Shown in pieces: positions 6,704-58,395 of a stretch of DNA of 64,000 nt. The DNA is from Octopus sinensis (lineage: Eukaryota). The notes beneath the pieces were generated by a model that did not search any database, was not told the origin of the DNA, and worked only from the letters and a program-made list of their open reading frames with translations. The first letter of the stretch is position 1, and each line of letters begins with the position of its first letter. Where the stretch lies: positions 1-64,000 of the forward strand of contig NW_021834221.1 of the NCBI RefSeq assembly GCF_006345805.1, read 5' to 3'. A program made the translations under genes and the position numbers.

Positions 6704-7013
6704 ACGCTCCGCAAAATCCCAAATTCTATTTATTTGCTTTGCTTTGCGGGAGCAACTGTTTTATTGAAAGTGTATCTTGTTTTAAATGTTCGAAATACGA
6801 GACTAGAAAAACAGCCAACAACTGATGAAGGGTAGTTCTTTATGTTGTTTGTTTTTGTTTTCTATTTTGGTCTTTGGTTGTTCCAGAGAATAATTCATGT
6901 TCCATGTACTCGTGCTTTTTTGTTGTACACGTTTAGTGACGTCCTGTGCCCACATATGCATATATATATATATATAATATGTATAGGTGTATTTACATAT
7001 ACGTATGTATATA

Positions 7014-7065
<52 letters not shown>

Positions 7066-7117
7066 GTGTAGGAAGAAATGGAGCTGAACGAAGATTTAAC
7101 AAAATTCCTTTTTAATT

Positions 7118-7203
7118 ATTTTCTACATATGTTTCAAAGCTGCAAAGTCCCTAATTCGGATTGAATAAGGAGACCATTTTGGCAGCCTTCTCTTCAGGAA
7201 AAT
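7118..7203 (-). ncRNA. Type I hammerhead ribozyme motif (left arm)
   Basis: Minus strand reads ATTTTC-CTGAAGA-long stem II-GAAA-CATATG-TA-GAAAAT. Stem II has two 1-nt indels relative to the right-arm copy. Confidence 0.7.
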
Positions 7204-7546
7204 CCAGGAACTTAATTCTCCAACAAAATGCACATCAAACTTTTCGACAAACGCTCGCGAGGAGCCCATGGGATAAATGGCACAAAACTGTCTCTCAATA
7301 TGCGTTGACGCCAGGCTGGGTGAAAGCCGACAGAATACATTCTCACTCTTTGATTTTCCTGTAACCCTCCCCCCTGTTAGCCGGATTTTGACCTTGATTT
7401 ATCTCAACGGACTTTTTCGTCGGCTTTCACCCAGCCTGGCGTCAACGCATATTGAGAGACAGTTTTGTGCCATTTATCCCATGGGCTCCTCGCGAGCGTT
7501 TGTCGAAAAGCTTGCTGCACATTTGTTTGGAGAATTAAGTTCCTGG

Positions 7547-7632
7547 ATTTTCCTGAAGAGAAGGCTGCAAAATGGTCTCCTTATTCAATCCGAATTAGGG
7601 ACTTTGCAGCCTTTGAAACATATGTAGAAAAT
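7547..7632 (+). ncRNA. Type I hammerhead ribozyme motif (right arm)
   Basis: Stem I ATTTTC/GAAAAT; core CTGAAGA (7553-7559); stem II G-AAGGCTGCAAA...TTTGCAGCCTT-T; GAAA (7615-7618); palindromic stem III ACATATGT; GUA cleavage triplet (7624-7626). Confidence 0.8.
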
Positions 7633-7836
7633 AATAAAAAGGAATTTTGTTAAATCTTCGTTCAGCTCCATTTCTTCCTACACTAAATATATAAACTTCA
7701 AATTTCCGCACTAAGGCACGGGTTTGAGACCCCATGGTCGTAACCTCAACCGTGATTTTTCTGTTGTGACTTTTGCTACCCAGGTATCGGTTATCTTTGA
7801 ATAATCCGTAACAAGATAATTCACTTATCCATTTCA

Positions 7837-7901
<65 letters not shown>

Positions 7902-10060: not shown

Positions 10061-10922
10061 ATTCTTTTCTACTCTAGACATCTGGTGCTTAATTTATCGA
10101 CCCCGAAAGTATAAAAGGCAAAGTCGACATCGGTGGAATGTGAACTCAGAACGTAAACACAGACGAAATACTGCTAAAGTTTCTGCCAGCTAGCCGCAGG
10201 CACAAGGCACTAAATTTTGAAGGAGGGAGACAGTCGATTAGATCGTCCCCAGTGCGTAACTGGTACTTAATTTATCGATCCCGAAAGGATGAAAGGCAAA
10301 GTCAACCTCGGCGGAATTTGAACTCAGAACGTAACGGCTGACGAAATACCTGTTTCGTTATTACCCACAAGGTGCTAAACATGGAGGGGACAAACGAGGA
10401 CAGACAAACGGATTAAGTCGATTGCATCGACCCCATGCGTAAATGGTACTTACTTAATCGACCCCGAAAGGATGAAAGGCAAAGTCGACATCGGTAGAAT
10501 TTGAACTCAGTACGTAACGGCGGACGAAATACCGCTAAGCATTTTGCCTGGCGAGCTAACGTTTCTTATTTCTTTACTGACCACAAGGAGCTAAACGTAG
10601 AGGGGACAAACAAGGACAGACAAAGGGATTAAGTCGATTACATCGACCCCAGTGTACCAGTTACTCAGAAAGTAACGGCAGACGAAATACCTATTTCTTT
10701 ATTACCCACAAGGGGCTAAACACAGAGGGGACAAACAAGGACAGACATAGGTATTAAGTCGATTACATCGACCCCAGTGCGTAACTGGTACTTAATTTAT
10801 CGACCCCGAAAGGATGAAAGGCAAAGTCGACCTCGGCGGAATTTGAACTCACAACGTAACGCAGACGAAATACCGCTAAGCATTTCGCCCGGCGTGCTAA
10901 CGATTCTGCCAGCTCGCCGCCT
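10061..10922 (-). mobile_element. SINE B tandem array of several partial and complete units
   Basis: Repeated CGACCCCGAAAGGATGAAAGGCAAAGTCGAC units; a complete head ends at about 10922. Confidence 0.85.
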
Positions 10923-11053
10923 TAAATATAGACGGATACGTTTTTTTTTTCAGTCAATGTGCGCGCATAGAGACGCACAAAGGCACACAAACAATTACAC
11001 GCATACACACACACGGACAGTGTGAACTTCTCATTATCATTTCCTGAGATTAA

Positions 11054-11665
11054 GGTCACGAGCTGGCAGAATAGTTACCACGTCTAGCAAAATGTTTAGT
11101 GTTCTGAGTTCAAATTCCGCGGAGGTCGACTTTGCCTTTCATCTTTTCAGGATCGATGAAATAAATACCAGTTAGTCACTGGGGTCGATGTAATCAATTT
11201 GTCCTCTCCCACAAAATTTCGGGCTTTGTGCCTATAGTAGAAATGTTTATGTCTTGAGAATAAGGTGGAGAACTGGCAGAACCGTTAGCACGCCGGGCGA
11301 AATGCTTAGCAGTATTACGTCTGGCGCAACGTTGTCAGTTCAAATTCCGCTGAGGTCGACTTTGCCCTTCATCCTTTCGGGGTCGATAAATAAGTACCAG
11401 TTACGCATTGGGGTCGATATAGTCGACTTAACCCGTTTGGCTGTCCTTGTTTGTCTCCTCTGTGTTTAGCCCCTTGTGGTTAGTAAAGAAATAGGTATTT
11501 CGTCTGTCTTTACGTTCTGGGTTCAAATTCCGTGAGGTTGACTTTGCCTTTCATTATTTCGCACTGGTGTCGATATAATCGACTTAATCCGCTTATCTGT
11601 CCTTGTTTGTCCCCTCTGTGTGTAGCCCCTTGCGGGTAGTAAAGAAATAGGTATTTCGTCCGTCC
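11054..11665 (+). mobile_element. SINE B copies, head-to-head with the previous array
   Basis: Plus-strand GAGCTGGCAGAA...GTTCAAATTCCGC..AGGTCGACTTTGCC units. Confidence 0.8.
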
Positions 11666-14225: not shown

Positions 14226-14694
14226 GATTGATTGATTGATTGATTCTAGTTTCAGCTTATGAGCTGTGGCCATGCTGGGACACCGCCATTTGGTGTTGCT
14301 ATATGATTTTACTTCACGAATGCTTTTTAGCAATTGCCATTTGGTGTATGAGAGAGTTCGATGCAGCTGCCCTCATCTGCACCTCCTGCCGTGAAGTTGG
14401 TTCATCTGGGACACCTGATAGGAAGAGATCCAGCTTCATTTTAAAGACATCTGTATCCACCCCATGCAGGTCTCTCAGGTTCTTCGGGAGGATATTGAAG
14501 AGCTGTGGGCCTCGGAAGCACAGGCTATCACAGAATCTTGTCCTACATCTTGATGGCAAATTTGGAGTCCTAGGCACCACGCAGTGGCGCCCAGTTCTGG
14601 CATTTGCGTAACTCTCGATGCCAAAGTTTAGGACACGTCCCTCCAGGATCTTCCAGATGTATATTATGGCATATCTTTCCCGCCTACGCTCCAT
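14226..14694 (-). mobile_element. CR1/L2-group LINE, 5'-truncated (ORF2 C-terminus and 3' end)
   Basis: The translation ERRRERYAIIYIWKIL...GPQLFNILPKNLR...FKMKLDLFLSGVPDEP...SNSL is typical of CR1-group ORF2 C-termini. The 3' end has a stem-loop and an (ATCA)n tail. Confidence 0.85.
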
Positions 14695-14876
14695 ATGTAT
14701 GTATGTATATATATATGTATATATATATAACGGGAAGGTTTACGAAAATAAACAAAAGACAAAAGGATACATGTGTGGCATTAAATGAGTGTCACGCTGG
14801 AAATGCCCGAACGACTGGAGTCAATTAAGGTGCTTTACAGCTAAGAAATACGGAGATGATTGATATGCCTCATACG

Positions 14877-24197: not shown

Positions 24198-24686
24198 CAG
24201 ATATGCATTTATACATGCATGCGTAAATATATACCTTGAGAATAGTAAAAAAAAATGGCGATGCAGACGACAGTAACTGTCGTCGTATTTCGTCCACATT
24301 TTGTTTGCTTTACGTTTTGACTCAAAATCTCATTAATTCAAGTTTGACAAGTGTAAGGTAAAAAATAAAACTGTTGATTGATCTGTTGCCTGATTACGTG
24401 TCCTGTGTTCGAATTCTTTCGTCTCACACAAATCATAGGCTCAGAACGATCAGCCATATTTTCCAGGTTTCTCTGAAACGTTGGGAATGCTATTCTGAGT
24501 CACAGTGATAAATGACAAGGCCTGAAATTTGAGGGGAGGGCTATGGTCGATAACGTTGACCCCCAGTGTTTCGATCTCGGTGGAATTTGAACTCAGGTAC
24601 TTGCACGTTGTGGATTCTGCCAGCTTGCCACCTTAGCCCCACAGTCATAATACAACTGTGTGTCTTTATCTCTGCATGTCTATGTA

Positions 24687-25076
24687 GGCGCAGGAGTGGC
24701 TGTGTGGTAAGTAGCTTGCTAACCAACCACATGGTTCCGGGTTCAGTCCCACTGCGTGGCATCTTGGGCAAGTGTCTTCTGCTATAGCCCCGGGCCGACC
24801 AATGCCTTGTGAGTGGATTTGGTAGACGGAAACTGGAAGAAGCCTGTCGTATGTATGTGTATGTGTTTGTGTGTCTGTGTTTGAACCCCTAGCATTGCTT
24901 GACAACCGATACTGGTGTGTTTACGTCCCCATGACTTAGCGGTTCGGCAAAAGAGACCGATAGATAAGTACTGGGCTTACAAAGAATAAGTCCCGGGGTC
25001 GATTTGCTCGACTAAAGGAGGTGCTCCAGCATGGCCGAAGTCAAATGACTGAAACATGTAAAAGAGTAAAAGAGTA
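24687..25076 (+). mobile_element. SINE A, full length
   Basis: Matches the SINE A consensus. Confidence 0.9.
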
Positions 25077-25092
25077 ACAGAGAGTATCTACT

Positions 25093-25335
25093 GCGAACCC
25101 TGCTGTACTCTTTCGCCACGACTTTCTCTCACCCTTTCTTTCAGTTTTTAATGTACCTGTAATTCAGAGGGCCCAACCTTGTTACACTCTGTGCCACGCT
25201 GAATCTCCCCGAGAACTACATTAAGGGCACACGTGTTTGTAGAGTGCTCAGCCACGTGCACGGTAATTTCACGAACAGGCTGTTCCGTTGATCGGATCAA
25301 TTGGAACCCTCGTCTTCGCAACCGACCGAGTGCCA
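25093..25335 (+). mobile_element. SINE D, 3' portion
   Basis: Homologous to the reverse complement of 40700-40945. Confidence 0.75.
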
Positions 25336-25354
25336 CCATTCTTTTATTCTTATT

Positions 25355-25760
25355 TTTTATTTCAGTCGTTTGACTGAGGCTATGCTGGAGCACCACTTTA
25401 GTCGAGCAAATGTAAATCAGGAGTTATTCTTTGTAATCCTAGTACTCATCCTATCGGAACTTCTTGCAGAACCGCTAAGTTACGGGGACGTAAACCTAGC
25501 AGCATCGGTTGTCAAGCGATGGCGGGGGGGGGGGACAAAAACAGACACACAAACATACACACACACATGATAATATATATATATATATATATATATAAGA
25601 CAGGCTTCTTTCAGTTTCCCTCTACCAAATCCACTCACAATGCTTTGGTAGGCCCGAAGCTAAAGTAGAAGACATTGCTTAAGGTGATACGCAGGAGGAC
25701 TGAACCCGAAACTGTGTAGTTGGTAAGCAAGCTACTTACCACAAAACCTCTCCTGCGCCT
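25355..25760 (-). mobile_element. SINE A, older diverged copy
   Basis: Diverged but colinear with the consensus. Confidence 0.8.
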
Positions 25761-25894
25761 AGAAAATATAAAATAAAAAATACTGAAATATGCAGAATGA
25801 AAACGCAAAGCAGAATGAATATCAGTAAAGTAATCACCGAGCATGCGCACTAGGTTGACTGTGTTAACGAATGAATAAATGATAACCAGTGTTA

Positions 25895-26712: not shown

Positions 26713-27464
26713 TCTTTAATAAATAAAAAGAAAACAGGTTTTAATGAAGGAGGGGGCGATTTGGCAACGGACGCCGAATTATAAAATGTCCTTAAAACTT
26801 AGTAATAGAAAATGATATCGGAAAGAAAGACGGGTTTTACAAAATCATTGAGTTAAACAGAAGATGGCTAAATATTGAATATGTTGAGTTAATGTAGCAG
26901 AATTTAAAGATAGGACGAGCAGAATGTAAATATTTCTAAGAGAAGCCAAAGAAATTTAAAATTCTAAAAGAAACGATCAACCTAATGAATTTATAGCAAA
27001 TGTGGATACATTGGAAGAAAGAAAAAAGAAACAATTATTGTCTAACGATGGATACCACCTGAAACGAAAGTTGCGTGAAAACCAATATTATTTACTAAAG
27101 CAAAATACTGTAAAAACATGGTGTCGATGATCTTTTCTGTTTATTCAAAATTTTTGCATTTAAATTGTGTGTATATATGCGAGGGCAAAAAACAAAACAC
27201 GTGGCACTGAACACATCTGACAGGCGTTATATATGTTTCATACCAGTTCGACTCAGCTGTTGGCGTATGGGACGAATATGTCTCATCACAATTTGGAAGA
27301 TTTCTGATGAGACGGTCTGGTTATATACATTTAAAACAAAATGACGATGAGTCACGTTGTTCCATACATACATACATACATACATACATACATACATACA
27401 TACATACATACATACATGCATGCATGCATGCATGCATGCATACATACATGCATGCATACATACA

Positions 27465-27760
27465 TGGAGAAGAGAAACTGTGCACAGTTGTGGAAATTAG
27501 CAGCCCAGTGGATATTAACATAAAGCAGAAGATCAGTGAAAAAGAGAACACCTACGATGAACTATTAAGAAATCTGCAGTTACTCTGTCCAGATTACAAT
27601 TTCAGGTTTATAGCTGTAATTATGGAGGCCCTGGGATATGTAGCACACCACCTAAATACCAATCTTGAGAAATTGGGCTTCTCAGGACCAGAAAGGAGAA
27701 AGCTAATTCGAAGACTACAGATCCAATCCATCATTGGAACTGTACAAATCTGTAATACTA
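27465..27760 (+). pseudogene. R4/Dong-like non-LTR retrotransposon restriction-like endonuclease fragment
   Basis: [33 protein letters not shown]...IAVIMEALG...LQIQSIIGTVQIC fits the C-terminal PD-(D/E)xK RLE domain pattern. Confidence 0.75.
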
Positions 27761-27783
27761 TTGCTTAACCATCTCCTAGCACC

Positions 27784-31894: not shown

Positions 31895-31928
<34 letters not shown>

Positions 31929-32002
31929 AATGTTGACCGCGTGTGTACCGTTGGTGATGTTTTTCCTCCGTCTTCCCTTCTCTGGATCTTTCCTTTTCCT
32001 AT

Positions 32003-32036
32003 GCTTCTGACGAACAGCTCCGCCGAAACGTTAAAC
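32003..32036 (+). ncRNA. Degenerate minimal hammerhead motif, unit 1
   Basis: GCTT-CTGACGA-ACAGCTCCGCC-GAAAC-GTT-AAAC. Core boxes are intact, stem III is the palindrome ACGT, and stems I and II are imperfect. Confidence 0.45.
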
Positions 32037-32381
32037 CCTTCTTCTTTCCTCAGCGTCCAATAATACTATATTTGTTCCACGTCCTTTTCATGTTTGGATT
32101 AACTATATATATATATAAATATATACGACGGGCTTCTTTCAGTTTCCGTCTACCACATGCACTCGCAAGGCTTCTGTCGGCCCGAGGCTATAATAGAAGA
32201 CACTTGCCCAAGGTGCCACGCAGTAAGACTGAACCCGGAACCATGTGGTTGGTTAGCAAGCTACTTACCACACAGCCACTCCTGCTGTATATATATGTAT
32301 ATATATATAATGTGACCGCGTGTGTACCGTTGGCGATGTTTTTCCTCCGTCTTCCCTTCTCTGGATCTTTCCTTTTCCTAT

Positions 32382-32416
32382 GCTTCTGACGAACAGCTCC
32401 GCTCGAAACGTTAAAC
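32382..32416 (+). ncRNA. Degenerate minimal hammerhead motif, unit 2
   Basis: GCTT-CTGACGA-A-CAGC-TCC-GCTC-GAAAC-GTT-AAAC. Confidence 0.5.
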
Positions 32417-33265
32417 CCTTCTTCTTTCCTGAGCGTCCAATAATACTATATTTGTTCCACGTCCTTTTCATGTTTGGATTAACTATATATATATATAAAT
32501 ATATACGACGGGCTTCTTTCAGTTTCCGTCTACCACATGCACTCGCATGGAATTGGTCGGCCCGAGGCTATAGTAGAAGACACTTGACCAAGGTGTCATG
32601 CAGTGAGACAGAACCCGGAACTATGTGGTTGGTAAGCAAGCTATTTACCACACAGCCACTCCTGCTGTATATATATGTATATATACATATATTTATGTAT
32701 ATATACATATATATATATACATATAGGAACATGTGAACAGGTTAATGGGGGCTTCAGGTAAACAATTATGCGTGTAAATATAAACAAGTGTGTGAATGTT
32801 TGTTCATGCATGTACACCATTTTCTTTGTTTGTTATATTCTACCATTACGTTTATTATCAAATGACTTTTGTGGCGACAAACGATACAAGGTTACTCACT
32901 ACAATGAAATATTTGGCACTCCGAAACTAAGATGTTGATGGTTCATCACTGGTTAATAAATCTTATTTTGACAGCTGTACACACCTTTGATTTGGAGGGG
33001 TTTGTTTTGCTTTTAATTTTAGTTGGGAGTGCTAAGAATTCAATAAGAATTGTATCACGTGATGTATTGAATTTGTCGAGAATATAACCTCAACGAACTC
33101 GCATGCTCACAGCCGTAGTCATTTAAATCTATGTGGCTATGAAATCTTTTTGTGGCTTTTTGTTTATTTATGTGATACGACGATTGTCAGGAGAGATTAC
33201 AGTGGTTGTTACCGGTGCATATACGTGCATGTAGGTGTATACAATATATATATATATATATATAT

Positions 33266-33443: not shown

Positions 33444-33590
33444 GTTATTATTATTATTATCATTATTATTAATGATAATAATATGCCATATGGCATTGTT
33501 GTTAAGAACTGGAGGGTATATCAGCCGAAATGTTGTGTTTACAACAAAGATGACAAATATACATCAATTGTAAATGATGTAAATAATGTA
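33266..33590. mobile_element. Older inverted-repeat PLE-like cassette with two decayed hammerheads around a (TTA)n spacer
   Basis: 33266-33345 and 33513-33590 are imperfect reverse complements. The minus arm reads ACAC-CTGATGA...GACACGTT-GTGT and the plus arm reads CTGGAGGGTATATCAGCC-GAAATGTT-GTGT. Confidence 0.65.
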
Positions 33591-33661
33591 CATAACACCT
33601 CATCTCTTAAATATAGAACTATATGTGTGTGTGTATGCGTGTATGTATGTGTGCATGCATG

Positions 33662-33893
33662 GCACCCATCATCGACTCTATCACAGCACCGACTCCTTCA
33701 CCTGCACTTCTACCTATATAATCTACTGCATCACCTGCTCTCTCTGCCCTTCTCTATACATCGGGCAAACGGGACACCGCTACGCTGATCGGTTCGCGGA
33801 ACACCTCCGAGACAAACGACTCGGCAATGACACTCCGGTCTTGCGCCTTTTCTGTTCTACCGGTCACCCTTTGCAACACCTGTCTGTGTTCGA
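33662..33893 (+). pseudogene. Penelope-like element GIY-YIG endonuclease fragment
   Basis: Within ORF 33586..33948: FTCTSTYIIYCITCSLCPSLYIGQTGHRYADRFAEHLRD..TPV matches the FTC.S..VIY.I.C..C...YIG.T.R....RF.EH signature. Confidence 0.85.
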
Positions 33894-33899
33894 AATCAT

Positions 33900-33966
33900 T
33901 GGTCGAAAATTCCCTATACTGATCTGTCAGTTTCGGCTAATTCCGTAGCCTCATCAGTAGGGACCA
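33900..33966 (-). ncRNA. Canonical type I hammerhead ribozyme
   Basis: Minus strand reads TCCCTA-CTGATGA-GGCTA(CGGAAT)TAGCC-GAA-ACTGA(CAGA)TCAGT-A-TAGGGA. All core nucleotides are present, the three stems are perfect, and the triplet is GUA. Stem I can be extended by TGGTC/GACCA. Confidence 0.9.
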
Positions 33967-41790: not shown

Positions 41791-42387
41791 GGCGGCGAGC
41801 TGGCAGAAACGTTAGCACGCCGGGCGAAATACTTTGTGGTATTTCGTCCGTCGCTGCATTCTGAGTTCAAATTCCGCCGAGGTCGACTTTGCCTTTCATC
41901 TTTTCGGAGTCGATAAATCAAGTACTAGTTACGCACTGGGGGTCAATATAATCAACTCAATCCGTTTTTCTGTCCTTGTTTGTCCTCTCTGTGTTTAGCC
42001 CCTTGTGCGTAGTACAGAAATAGGTATTTCGTTTGCCGCTACGTTCTGAGTTCAAATTCCGCCGAGGTCGACTTTGCCTTTCATCCTTTCGAAGTCGATA
42101 AATTAAGTACCAGTTACGTACTGAGGTCAACGTAATCGACTTAAACCGTTTGTCTGTCCTTGTTTGTCTCCTCTGTGTTTAGCCCCTTGTGTGTAGTACA
42201 GAAATAGGTATTTCGTTTGCCGCTACGTTCTGAGTTCAAATTCCGCCGGGGTCGACTTTGCTTTTCATCTTTTCTGGGTCGATAATCAAGTACCAGTTAC
42301 GCACTGAGGTCGATGTAATCGATTTAAACCGTTTGTCCATCCTTGTTTGTCCTCTGTGTTTAGACCCCAGTGGGCAATAAAGAAATA
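41791..42387 (+). mobile_element. SINE B trimer flanked by a single TSD
   Basis: Three ~180-bp units. AGAAC(G/A)TCTGTTAAAG occurs at 41776-41791 and 42388-42403. Confidence 0.9.
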
Positions 42388-48665: not shown

Positions 48666-49345
48666 AGGCGCAGGAGTGGCTATAGGCGCAGGAGTGGCTG
48701 TGTGGTAAGTAGCTTGCTTACCAATCACATGGTTCCGAGTTCAGTCCCACTGCGTGGCACCTTGGGCAAGTGTCTTCTGCTATAGCCCCGGGCCGACCAA
48801 TGCCTTGTGAGTGGATTTGAAACTGAAAGAAGCCTGTCGTATATATGTATATTATATATATAAGTGTGTGTGTATATGTTTGTGTGTCTGTGTTTGTCCC
48901 CCTAGCATTGCTTGACAACCGATGCTGGTGTGTTTACGTCCCCGTCACTTAGCGGTTCGGCAAAAGAGACCGATAGAATAAGTACTGGGCTTACAAAAAG
49001 AATAAGTCCCGGGGTCGATTTGCTTGACTAAAGGCGGTGCTCCAGCATGGCCGCAGTCAAATTACTGAAACAAGTAAAAGAGAAAAGAGACCGATAGAAT
49101 AAGTACTGGGCTTACAAAGAATAAGTCCCGGGGTCGATTTGCTTGACTAAAAGGCGGTGCTCCAGCATGGCCGCAGTCAAATTACTGAAACAAGTAAAAG
49201 AGAAAAGAGACCGATAGAATAAGTACTGGGCTTACAAAGAATAAGTCCCGGGGTCGATTTGCTTGACTAAAAAAAGGCGGTGCTCCAGCATGGCCGCAGT
49301 CAAATTACTGAAACAAGTAAAAGAGTAAAAAAAAAAAGAAGAGAG
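48666..49345 (+). mobile_element. SINE A with a duplicated 5' end and a triplicated 3' segment of about 120 bp
   Basis: TAGGCGCAGGAGTGGC occurs twice; GAGACCGATAGAAT...GAAACAAGTAAAAG occurs three times. Confidence 0.9.
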
Positions 49346-55659: not shown

Positions 55660-56900
55660 GACGGCGAGGTGGCAGAGTCGTTAGCACGTCGGGCATAATG
55701 CTTAGCGTTATTTCGTCCGCTTTTACGTTCCGAGGTCGAATTCCGCCGAGGTCGAATTCCGCCGAGGTCGACTTTACCTTTAATCTTTCCGAGGTCGATA
55801 GAATAAGTATCAGTTGAGTACTTGGGTTGATATAATAGACTTAGGCCTTTCTCTGTAATTTCTGGCCTTGAGCCAAAATTCGAAACCAAAATAATAATGA
55901 TAAAGCAGGCCGTGAGATGGCAGAATCGTTAGCACGCCGGGCGGAATGCTTAGTGGTATTTCGTCTGTCTTTACGATCTGAGTTCAAATTCAGCCGAGGT
56001 CGACTTTGCTTTTAATCATTTCGGGTTCGATAAATTAAGTACCAGTTGCGCACTGGGGTCGATGTAATCGACCTAATCCGTTTGTGTGTCCTTGTTTGTC
56101 CTCTCTGTGTTTAGCCCCTTGTGGGTAATAAAGAAATAGGTATTTCGTCTGTATGTACTGAGTTCAAATTCAGCCAAGGTCGACTTTGCCTTTAATCATT
56201 TCGGGTTCGATAAATTAAGTACCAGTTGCGCACCGGGGTCGATGTAATCGGCGTAATCCGTTTGTCTGTCCTTGTTTGTCCCCTCTGTGTTTAACCCTTT
56301 GTGGGTAGTAAAGAAATAGGTATTTCGTCTGTCTTTATGTTCTGAGTTCAAATTCCGCCGTGGTCAACTTTGCCTTTCGTCCTTTCAGGGTCGATAAATT
56401 AAGTACCAGTTACGCACTGGGGTCGATGTAATCGGCCTAATCCGTTTGTCTGTCCTTGTTTGTCCTCCCTGTGTTTAGTCCCTTGTGGGTAGTAAAGAAA
56501 TAGGTATTTCGTCTGTCTTTATGTTCTGAGTTCAAATTCAGCCACGGTTGACTTTGCCTTTAATCCTTTCAGTTTCGATAAATTAAATACCAGTTGCGTA
56601 CTGAGGTCGATCTAATCCGCTGGCCCCCTCCCCAAAATTTCGGACCTTGTGCTTAGAATAGAAAAGAATAAGGATAAAGAAGACGGAAAGTTGACAGAAT
56701 CGTTAGTACGCTGGGTAGGATGCTTAGCGGCATTGCGTCCGTCAGTACGTTCTGAGTTCAAATTCCGCTGATATTGACTTCACCTTCCATCATTTCAGGG
56801 TCGATAAAATACGCACCAGATGAAAACTGGAGGGGATTTAATCGACTTCGCCCCTTTTCCGAACCTGCTAGCCTATTGTCAAAATTCGAAACCAATACGA
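55660..56900 (+). mobile_element. SINE B array: tetramer at about 55908-56670 plus older flanking copies
   Basis: Units of about 180 bp joined at AAGAAATAGGTATTTCGTC. Confidence 0.85.
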
Positions 56901-57602: not shown

Positions 57603-58338
<736 letters not shown>

Positions 58339-58340
58339 TA

Positions 58341-58395
<55 letters not shown>

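Follow-up and report, generated by a model that had tools for sequence, protein, structure and literature searches.

A stretch of DNA that folds back on itself and holds a predicted ribozyme in each half could be a mobile unit in its own right or a by-product of another element's insertion, and this is the question raised by positions 7061-7836 of the 64,000-nt window analyzed here (Octopus sinensis, contig NW_021834221.1, positions 1 to 64,000). The foldback proper measures 630 bp. The sequence-only reading had described near-identical inverted arms around an 87-bp spacer, and the alignment confirmed this: 7061-7331 and 7419-7690 are reverse complements, about 97% alike, with 87 bp between them. 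The arms differ by six substitutions, all located within 7511-7526, and three one-base indels. A confinement of the substitutions to 16 nt was matched by only 6 of 2,000,000 random placements, and the same 16 nt also vary among copies of the family found in contigs. The (TA)n reported on both sides of the foldback was present only in part. On the left, a microsatellite at 6960-7060 (TRF 6960-7062, period 2) is likely the left half of the target site, but on the right 143 bp of family sequence precede the (TA)n at 7837-7898 (TRF), likely the right half. A motif scan of the window detected no second copy of the foldback.

Our preferred reading is that two 5'-truncated 3' ends of one hammerhead repeat lie head to head in (TA)n, and we regard it as probable that both arrived in one insertion of a Penelope-like element (PLE). 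The hairpin is then likely an ordinary landing product of such an element and not a new fold-back element. The evidence comes from the hammerheads, from the repeat family in public sequencing runs, and from the inversion joints within this family.

A predicted type I hammerhead was located in the sense copy at 7547-7632 (plus strand) by motif scan, descriptor and folding. Its stem I pairs 7547-7552 with 7627-7632 (6 bp), the core halves CUGAAGA and GAAA occupy 7553-7559 and 7615-7618, and the stem II region between them (7560-7614) comprises 55 nt, namely 11 bp plus a pairable insert, with G.U instead of G-C as its base pair. The palindromic stem III, ACAUAUGU, lies at 7618-7625 and is followed by a GUA cut site with predicted cleavage after A7626, 67 nt before the shorter of two 3' ends, so that this is a type I hammerhead near a 3' end. 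The complete type I core (CUGANGA ... GAAA ... NUH with stems I-III) was found by scan and folding. The inverted copy holds a second predicted type I hammerhead at 7118-7203 (minus strand; motif scan), with its core start at 7197 and its cut after 7124, and the two core starts are 356 bp apart. A type I hammerhead with a long stem II and a palindromic stem III in each arm, as claimed from the letters, was thus recovered, but the two copies differ: on the left, stem II contains two one-base indels, and its predicted fold has 8 bp and an unpaired G following A9.

Our own descriptor gave three hammerhead matches in the window (the two arms and 33957), compared with 0.017 on average and at most 1 over 60 first-order Markov windows. 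Rfam returned no hammerhead match for either arm motif, even at E <= 10. A pattern scan with a gapped core found none in prokaryotic genomes and none in viral contigs. Five metagenome loci sharing a 21-nt motif were rejected as chance matches because the extension stops at 21-25 nt. In folding of the monomer, the active structure lay 1.6 kcal/mol over the local minimum; stem II was predicted to be stable, stems I and III weak (0.0-0.25), and pairing of the palindrome between two molecules was predicted at -7.0.

All or part of the stretch was contained in 20 of the 24 public sequencing rows listed, which came from 9 studies and carried four organism labels. Four runs were aligned to 7061-7836, three of DNA type (X2, X4 and X5, with labels A, B and C) and one guessed to be RNA (X10). 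They gave 1374 (X2), 1064 (X4), 562 (X5) and 28 (X10) matching contigs, most of them at 90-99% identity. The 507 bp at 7330-7836 (plus strand), seen in contigs of all four runs, therefore belong to a high-copy family, these numbers being contig counts and not copy numbers. The contig pieces were colinear on the plus strand over 7330-7587 and 7580-7836. Position 7418/7419 was bridged by records 2, 11 and 18, while record 17 (depth 4113) had 24 letters on the right, so the junction from spacer to right arm is ordinary family sequence. Further upstream, contigs ran past 7330 with other letters (three in X4, three in X5, and record 2 of X10 with 68 letters), and one of the X4 and X5 contigs was identical to the window over 7330-7420. 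It follows that the family continues upstream of 7330, with a unit of no less than 575 nt, and that the "spacer" (7332-7418, plus strand) is no separate module but 5' sequence present in the longer copy alone. Indels were frequent among the family copies.

The family has two 3' ends, one at 7693 and the other at 7836 at least. At 7693, ten contigs of X2 and another ten of X5 passed from the family into (TA)n, at the very point at which the left arm stops; in the arm alignment the inverted copy (7061-7331, minus strand) is a 5'-truncated family 3' end that stops at the equivalent of about 7690-7693 and enters (TA)n. The one-sided, tail-like extension of 143 bp (7694-7836, plus strand) also belongs to the family, with records 7 and 8 of X10 bridging 7693 and depth remaining high to 7836 in all four runs. 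In 28 contigs of X2, 20 of X5 and 4 of X10, a subfamily departed from the window sequence at 7672 (/7077) and ended in other, AT-rich letters, indicating at least two versions of the short 3' end. A possible stem-loop was noted at 7783-7830, at the end of the extension and just before the long 3' end, and insertions among the copies clustered nearby at 7792-7795.

Some variation within the family fell in the ribozyme. Position 7563 was A in most of the depth of all four runs, while the window has G in both arms, and 7622 was changed from A to G in 34-90% of the depth in all four. At one contig end of X10, both central letters of the palindrome were changed in a way that leaves it palindromic, with C at 11.1 and U opposite 7563. 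This contig, together with variant rows that are unphased (40 of 106 listed, the partner position of 7622 not among them), suggests that compensating changes may maintain both stem II and the palindrome.

Inversions were not restricted to this locus. Among 15 joints listed within the family, 13 ran from antisense to sense, head to head; the remaining two were small deletions, and one more inversion appeared in a separate table. In family coordinates, the starting points lay at 7436-7638 for the antisense copies and at 7451-7730 for the sense copies. The offset between the two 5' ends ranged from -259 to +83, none being like the +87 of the foldback locus, and several joints carried a few extra letters. 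Depths of the joint contigs were 12-48 (X2), 36-213 (X4) and 3.5-11 (X5), tiny compared with the depth summed over the family, about 10^4-10^5 in X2 and X4 and 10^3-10^4 in X5, as expected of single-locus junctions. Head-to-head joints appeared in all three DNA-type runs. Each joint alone is weak because the shorter side mostly has fewer than 30 letters (30 or more in only 2 of 13), a known caveat of short joints. None of 14 joints started within 5 nt on either side of 7627, next to the ribozyme cut, and no head-to-tail joint was found among the 15 listed, where a junction upstream of 7330 could not appear. These results do not agree with a discrete mobile foldback made of arms and spacer, as first proposed, since the breakpoints vary and the spacer is upstream family sequence. 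A MITE or Foldback DNA transposon with fixed TIRs was likewise rejected: the breakpoints vary, and a longer unit encloses the right arm.

The same architecture is known from PLEs. Insertions of endonuclease-bearing (EN+) PLEs are described with an inverted 5'-truncated copy at the 5' end, a one-sided tail of 30-40 bp and (TA)n targets (Craig et al. 2021, PMC8557442), and head-to-head is reported as the most frequent arrangement of PLE copies (Arkhipova et al. 2013, PMC3846280). The foldback locus resembles these accounts in its head-to-head inverted copy, its one-sided extension and its hammerhead shortly before the 3' end. A 5'-truncated inverted partner at the 5' end, differing between copies, was found at the locus and in 13 of the 15 joints listed (with short sides), and (TA)n was found on both flanks (TRF) and at the 7693 ends of other copies. 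The suggestion of a hammerhead-bearing retroelement with a Penelope-like inverted copy is thus sustained by the recurring head-to-head joints and the (TA)n ends. In contrast to EN+ PLEs as described there, no ORF is left at the locus, and the extension of 143 bp, about four times the published 30-40 bp, speaks against a PLE landing. Target-site duplications are unreadable inside (TA)n.

The anatomy of the family was observed directly. The mechanism that follows, with its enzyme, its succession of events and its parent ORF, is the one that we infer to be most likely. The GIY-YIG endonuclease of an EN+ PLE would nick both strands within (TA)n, and reverse transcription would start twice on the element RNA, from the short 3' end and from the long one. 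Both cDNAs would end early and be joined head to head through a short overlap; at 7330-7331, the end of the left arm (7331) and the start of the contig matches (7330) overlap by 2 nt (AC). The mirror half would be made anew at every landing. A PLE protein that nicks and extends both strands, with two internal reverse transcription start sites defining the tail, has been described (Frangieh et al. 2024, PMC11167929). An alternative route to the same structure would be self-priming on an antisense template, as set out in PMC3846280. The hammerhead would serve the parent transcript, in the processing of tandem precursors, and not the foldback locus, and cleavage of these precursors would probably be aided by a second hammerhead copy or by protein. 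PLE hammerheads are reported to have low, dimer-dependent activity (Cervera and de la Pena 2014, PMC4209133), and protein-assisted cleavage is reported for a PLE (PMC11167929).

The motifs themselves fit this group, being type I with a short stem I, a long stem II and a small palindromic stem III like the PLE hammerheads of PMC4209133. Pairs on opposite strands, 100-700 bp apart, are described there for Schistosoma mansoni, and the 356 bp between the core starts fall within this range. Penelope-13_HM (Repbase), of the Hydra clade, carries hammerheads on both strands and targets (TA)n, and a G.U at the base of stem II is shared with motifs of the Hydra clade (both PMC8557442 supplement). In contrast, the canonical motifs in the table of Craig et al. 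are shorter between the core halves than the 55 nt found here, the longest, marked as deviating, having about 50 nt, and 55 nt is far beyond the 7-17 nt of their core descriptor. In the text of their supplement, four exact motifs of the family were absent, a search in which diverged or line-spanning matches could be missed. The note "HHR_half_core" on Naiad_Ovul raised a possible link to Naiad elements. This link found no support in the ends compared by eye: the last lines of Naiad_Obim, Naiad_Ovul and Naiad_Omin, and also the hammerhead of Hydra-1_Obim, looked different from the family. For Octopus vulgaris, 31 recently active Penelope-like families are reported (PMC13282606). The literature covered, with Repbase and most subscription papers outside its scope, contained no account of this cephalopod hammerhead family or of foldback hammerhead elements, and the family may already have been named.

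Open frames gave no hint of a protein, in agreement with the first impression that no credible ORF is present, which was upheld by Pfam and protein searches of these frames. Eight open frames had no Pfam match above the cut-off, and frame 7456-7650 had no match among longer proteins. A match of frame 7334-7624 to a plant EDR4-like protein (E = 1e-11) was rejected as chance, the score being inflated by internal repeats of that protein. The assignment to PLEs is based on insertion anatomy and the hammerhead, and the parent is likely the 3' UTR or pseudo-LTR of an autonomous PLE. Against this stands that the 507 bp seen gave no coding match and that no RT or endonuclease ORF could be connected with the family. 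A stop codon was observed about 12 nt before 7330 in the upstream versions of X4 and X5 (30 letters displayed), and this could be the end of the parent ORF.

Elsewhere in the window, at 33583-33965, a GIY-YIG-like frame on the plus strand had a Pfam E value of 0.0003, just under the cut-off, and contained CxxC and Y-I-G motifs; its presence there, next to a hammerhead, counts in favor of the PLE reading. It is adjoined by a second type I hammerhead, unrelated and on the minus strand, with its core at 33957 and its cut at 33917, which looks canonical, with a G-C stem II base and a 5-bp stem III (Rfam Hammerhead_3, E = 0.1), and is therefore predicted to work as a monomer. The frame and this hammerhead meet tail to tail, unlike the foldback locus. 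One relative was found (P0001).

An insertion by the same route but of a non-autonomous parent, a hammerhead element longer than 575 nt, retrozyme-like or dispersed and non-coding, that borrows PLE enzymes, is a minor possibility that still deserves consideration. The 507 bp without coding signal, the very high copy number and the frequent indels among copies would be consistent with it. Like the animal non-LTR retrozymes of PMC7229834 and bioRxiv 10.64898/2026.07.22.740005, the family is probably related to PLE pLTRs, non-coding where seen and 41% G+C, with a type I hammerhead; the bioRxiv account derives animal retrozymes from PLE pLTRs and gives them many solo monomers and a consensus length of 51-972 bp. 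However, the unit of more than 575 nt exceeds the 170-400 nt given for retrozymes in PMC7229834, and the foldback locus is not tandem. TRF and the motif scan found no head-to-tail tandem hammerhead monomers at the locus, and a tandem retrozyme was accordingly rejected there; the 15 joints listed also lack a head-to-tail one. Moreover, solo hammerheads are mostly truncated 3' UTR copies of autonomous PLEs according to PMC4209133. An extended version, in which an abundant ORF-less hammerhead retroelement of several related species parasitizes PLE enzymes, starts reverse transcription at two sites 143 nt apart, has a long-stem-II hammerhead that Rfam and published descriptors miss, and leaves hairpins at many sites, appears unlikely. 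If it were true, such hairpins would seed the genome with substrates for editing and small RNAs, and some of the "half-core" motifs of Naiad might be complete hammerheads with long stems.

It is improbable that the family is genuine but the local inversion a chimera of assembly or library, such as a fold-back read or a collapsed repeat. Of the nine arm differences, three are one-base indels, of which two fall in homopolymer runs, and PLE inversions are described as troublesome for assemblies (PMC8557442). No contig bridged 7331/7332 among the 32 pieces listed of 3066, so the reads neither confirm nor contradict the local inversion. However, a random chimera would not be expected to end its left arm at a family-typical 3' end and enter (TA)n there. 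Six of the arm differences are substitutions, among which TG versus CA at 7518-7519 looks like separate CpG decay, and similar inversions at other loci were found in 3/3 DNA-type runs.

We consider it highly unlikely that the 630-bp foldback itself moves or functions as a unit, as a ribozyme hairpin that silences itself. Its arms are 97% alike and both have letters that differ from the family majority (such as G7563), and the hairpin is predicted to be extremely stable. However, letters common to the arms are equally explained by a single source RNA, breakpoints vary between copies, no second copy exists in the window, and contigs over the 5' end of the spacer continue elsewhere and not into the left arm. 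An ordinary copy inverted and duplicated later, by a template switch in repair or replication, would be consistent with the 2-nt microhomology at the junction and with the fragility of (TA)n tracts, but is hardly credible because the duplicated part reaches no further than the short 3' end, without tail or flank, and the inversions recur specifically in this hammerhead repeat family.

Under the preferred reading, a PLE landing, the consequences for RNA would be incidental. The whole stretch folded as one long hairpin (-507.8 kcal/mol, z = -50 compared with 20 shuffles). Within the whole foldback, the pairing probability was 0.00 for every hammerhead stem on either strand; the left stem II was scored in the register of the right arm in that folding, so low values do not mean a broken left motif. 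Read-through RNA is thus predicted to bury the ribozyme in a duplex of about 270 bp, and the expectation from the letters that such RNA zips up was borne out as a prediction. From the layout, read-through RNA from either flank would have its antisense arm made first, and the two ribozymes are unable to partner in one RNA because they lie on opposite strands. The locus is likely a dead stump with incidental dsRNA as its sole possible output. Rearranged Drosophila Penelope copies are described with siRNAs mapping to the inverted part (PMC3681739, PMC3136932), and the foldback locus resembles these copies in having an inverted repeat that could yield dsRNA. Nearly all A>G differences listed for X10 also occurred in the DNA-type runs. 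Close inverted repeat pairs of SINE-like sequence (69-85% identity) were also noted at 10104-11660 and 24685-25761 of the window, and pairs that could form dsRNA are therefore not unique to the foldback locus.

Published work on PLEs already describes this architecture, paired ribozymes on opposite strands and the dsRNA that may result; within the part of the literature covered, only two features, the 143-bp extension and the length of stem II, go beyond published PLE descriptions. The single locus thus matters little and the family is of modest value. As it is abundant and recent, the family offers two 3' ends and numerous inversion junctions of independent origin, with which a two-nick model of PLE inversion could be told from a self-priming one. 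With a stem II region of 55 nt, such motifs are undercounted by present hammerhead searches.

Other repeats were noted in the window. Tandem arrays resembling SINE duplications were located at 31907-32689, 41838-42368, 48962-49330 and 55955-56617, with units of 380, 184, 120 and 184 bp, respectively, and our own descriptor detected no hammerhead in these four arrays. Frames at 57833-58342 (minus strand), 27211-27768 (plus strand) and 14314-14739 (minus strand), which had no Pfam match above the cut-off, presumably resemble the ends of LINE proteins.
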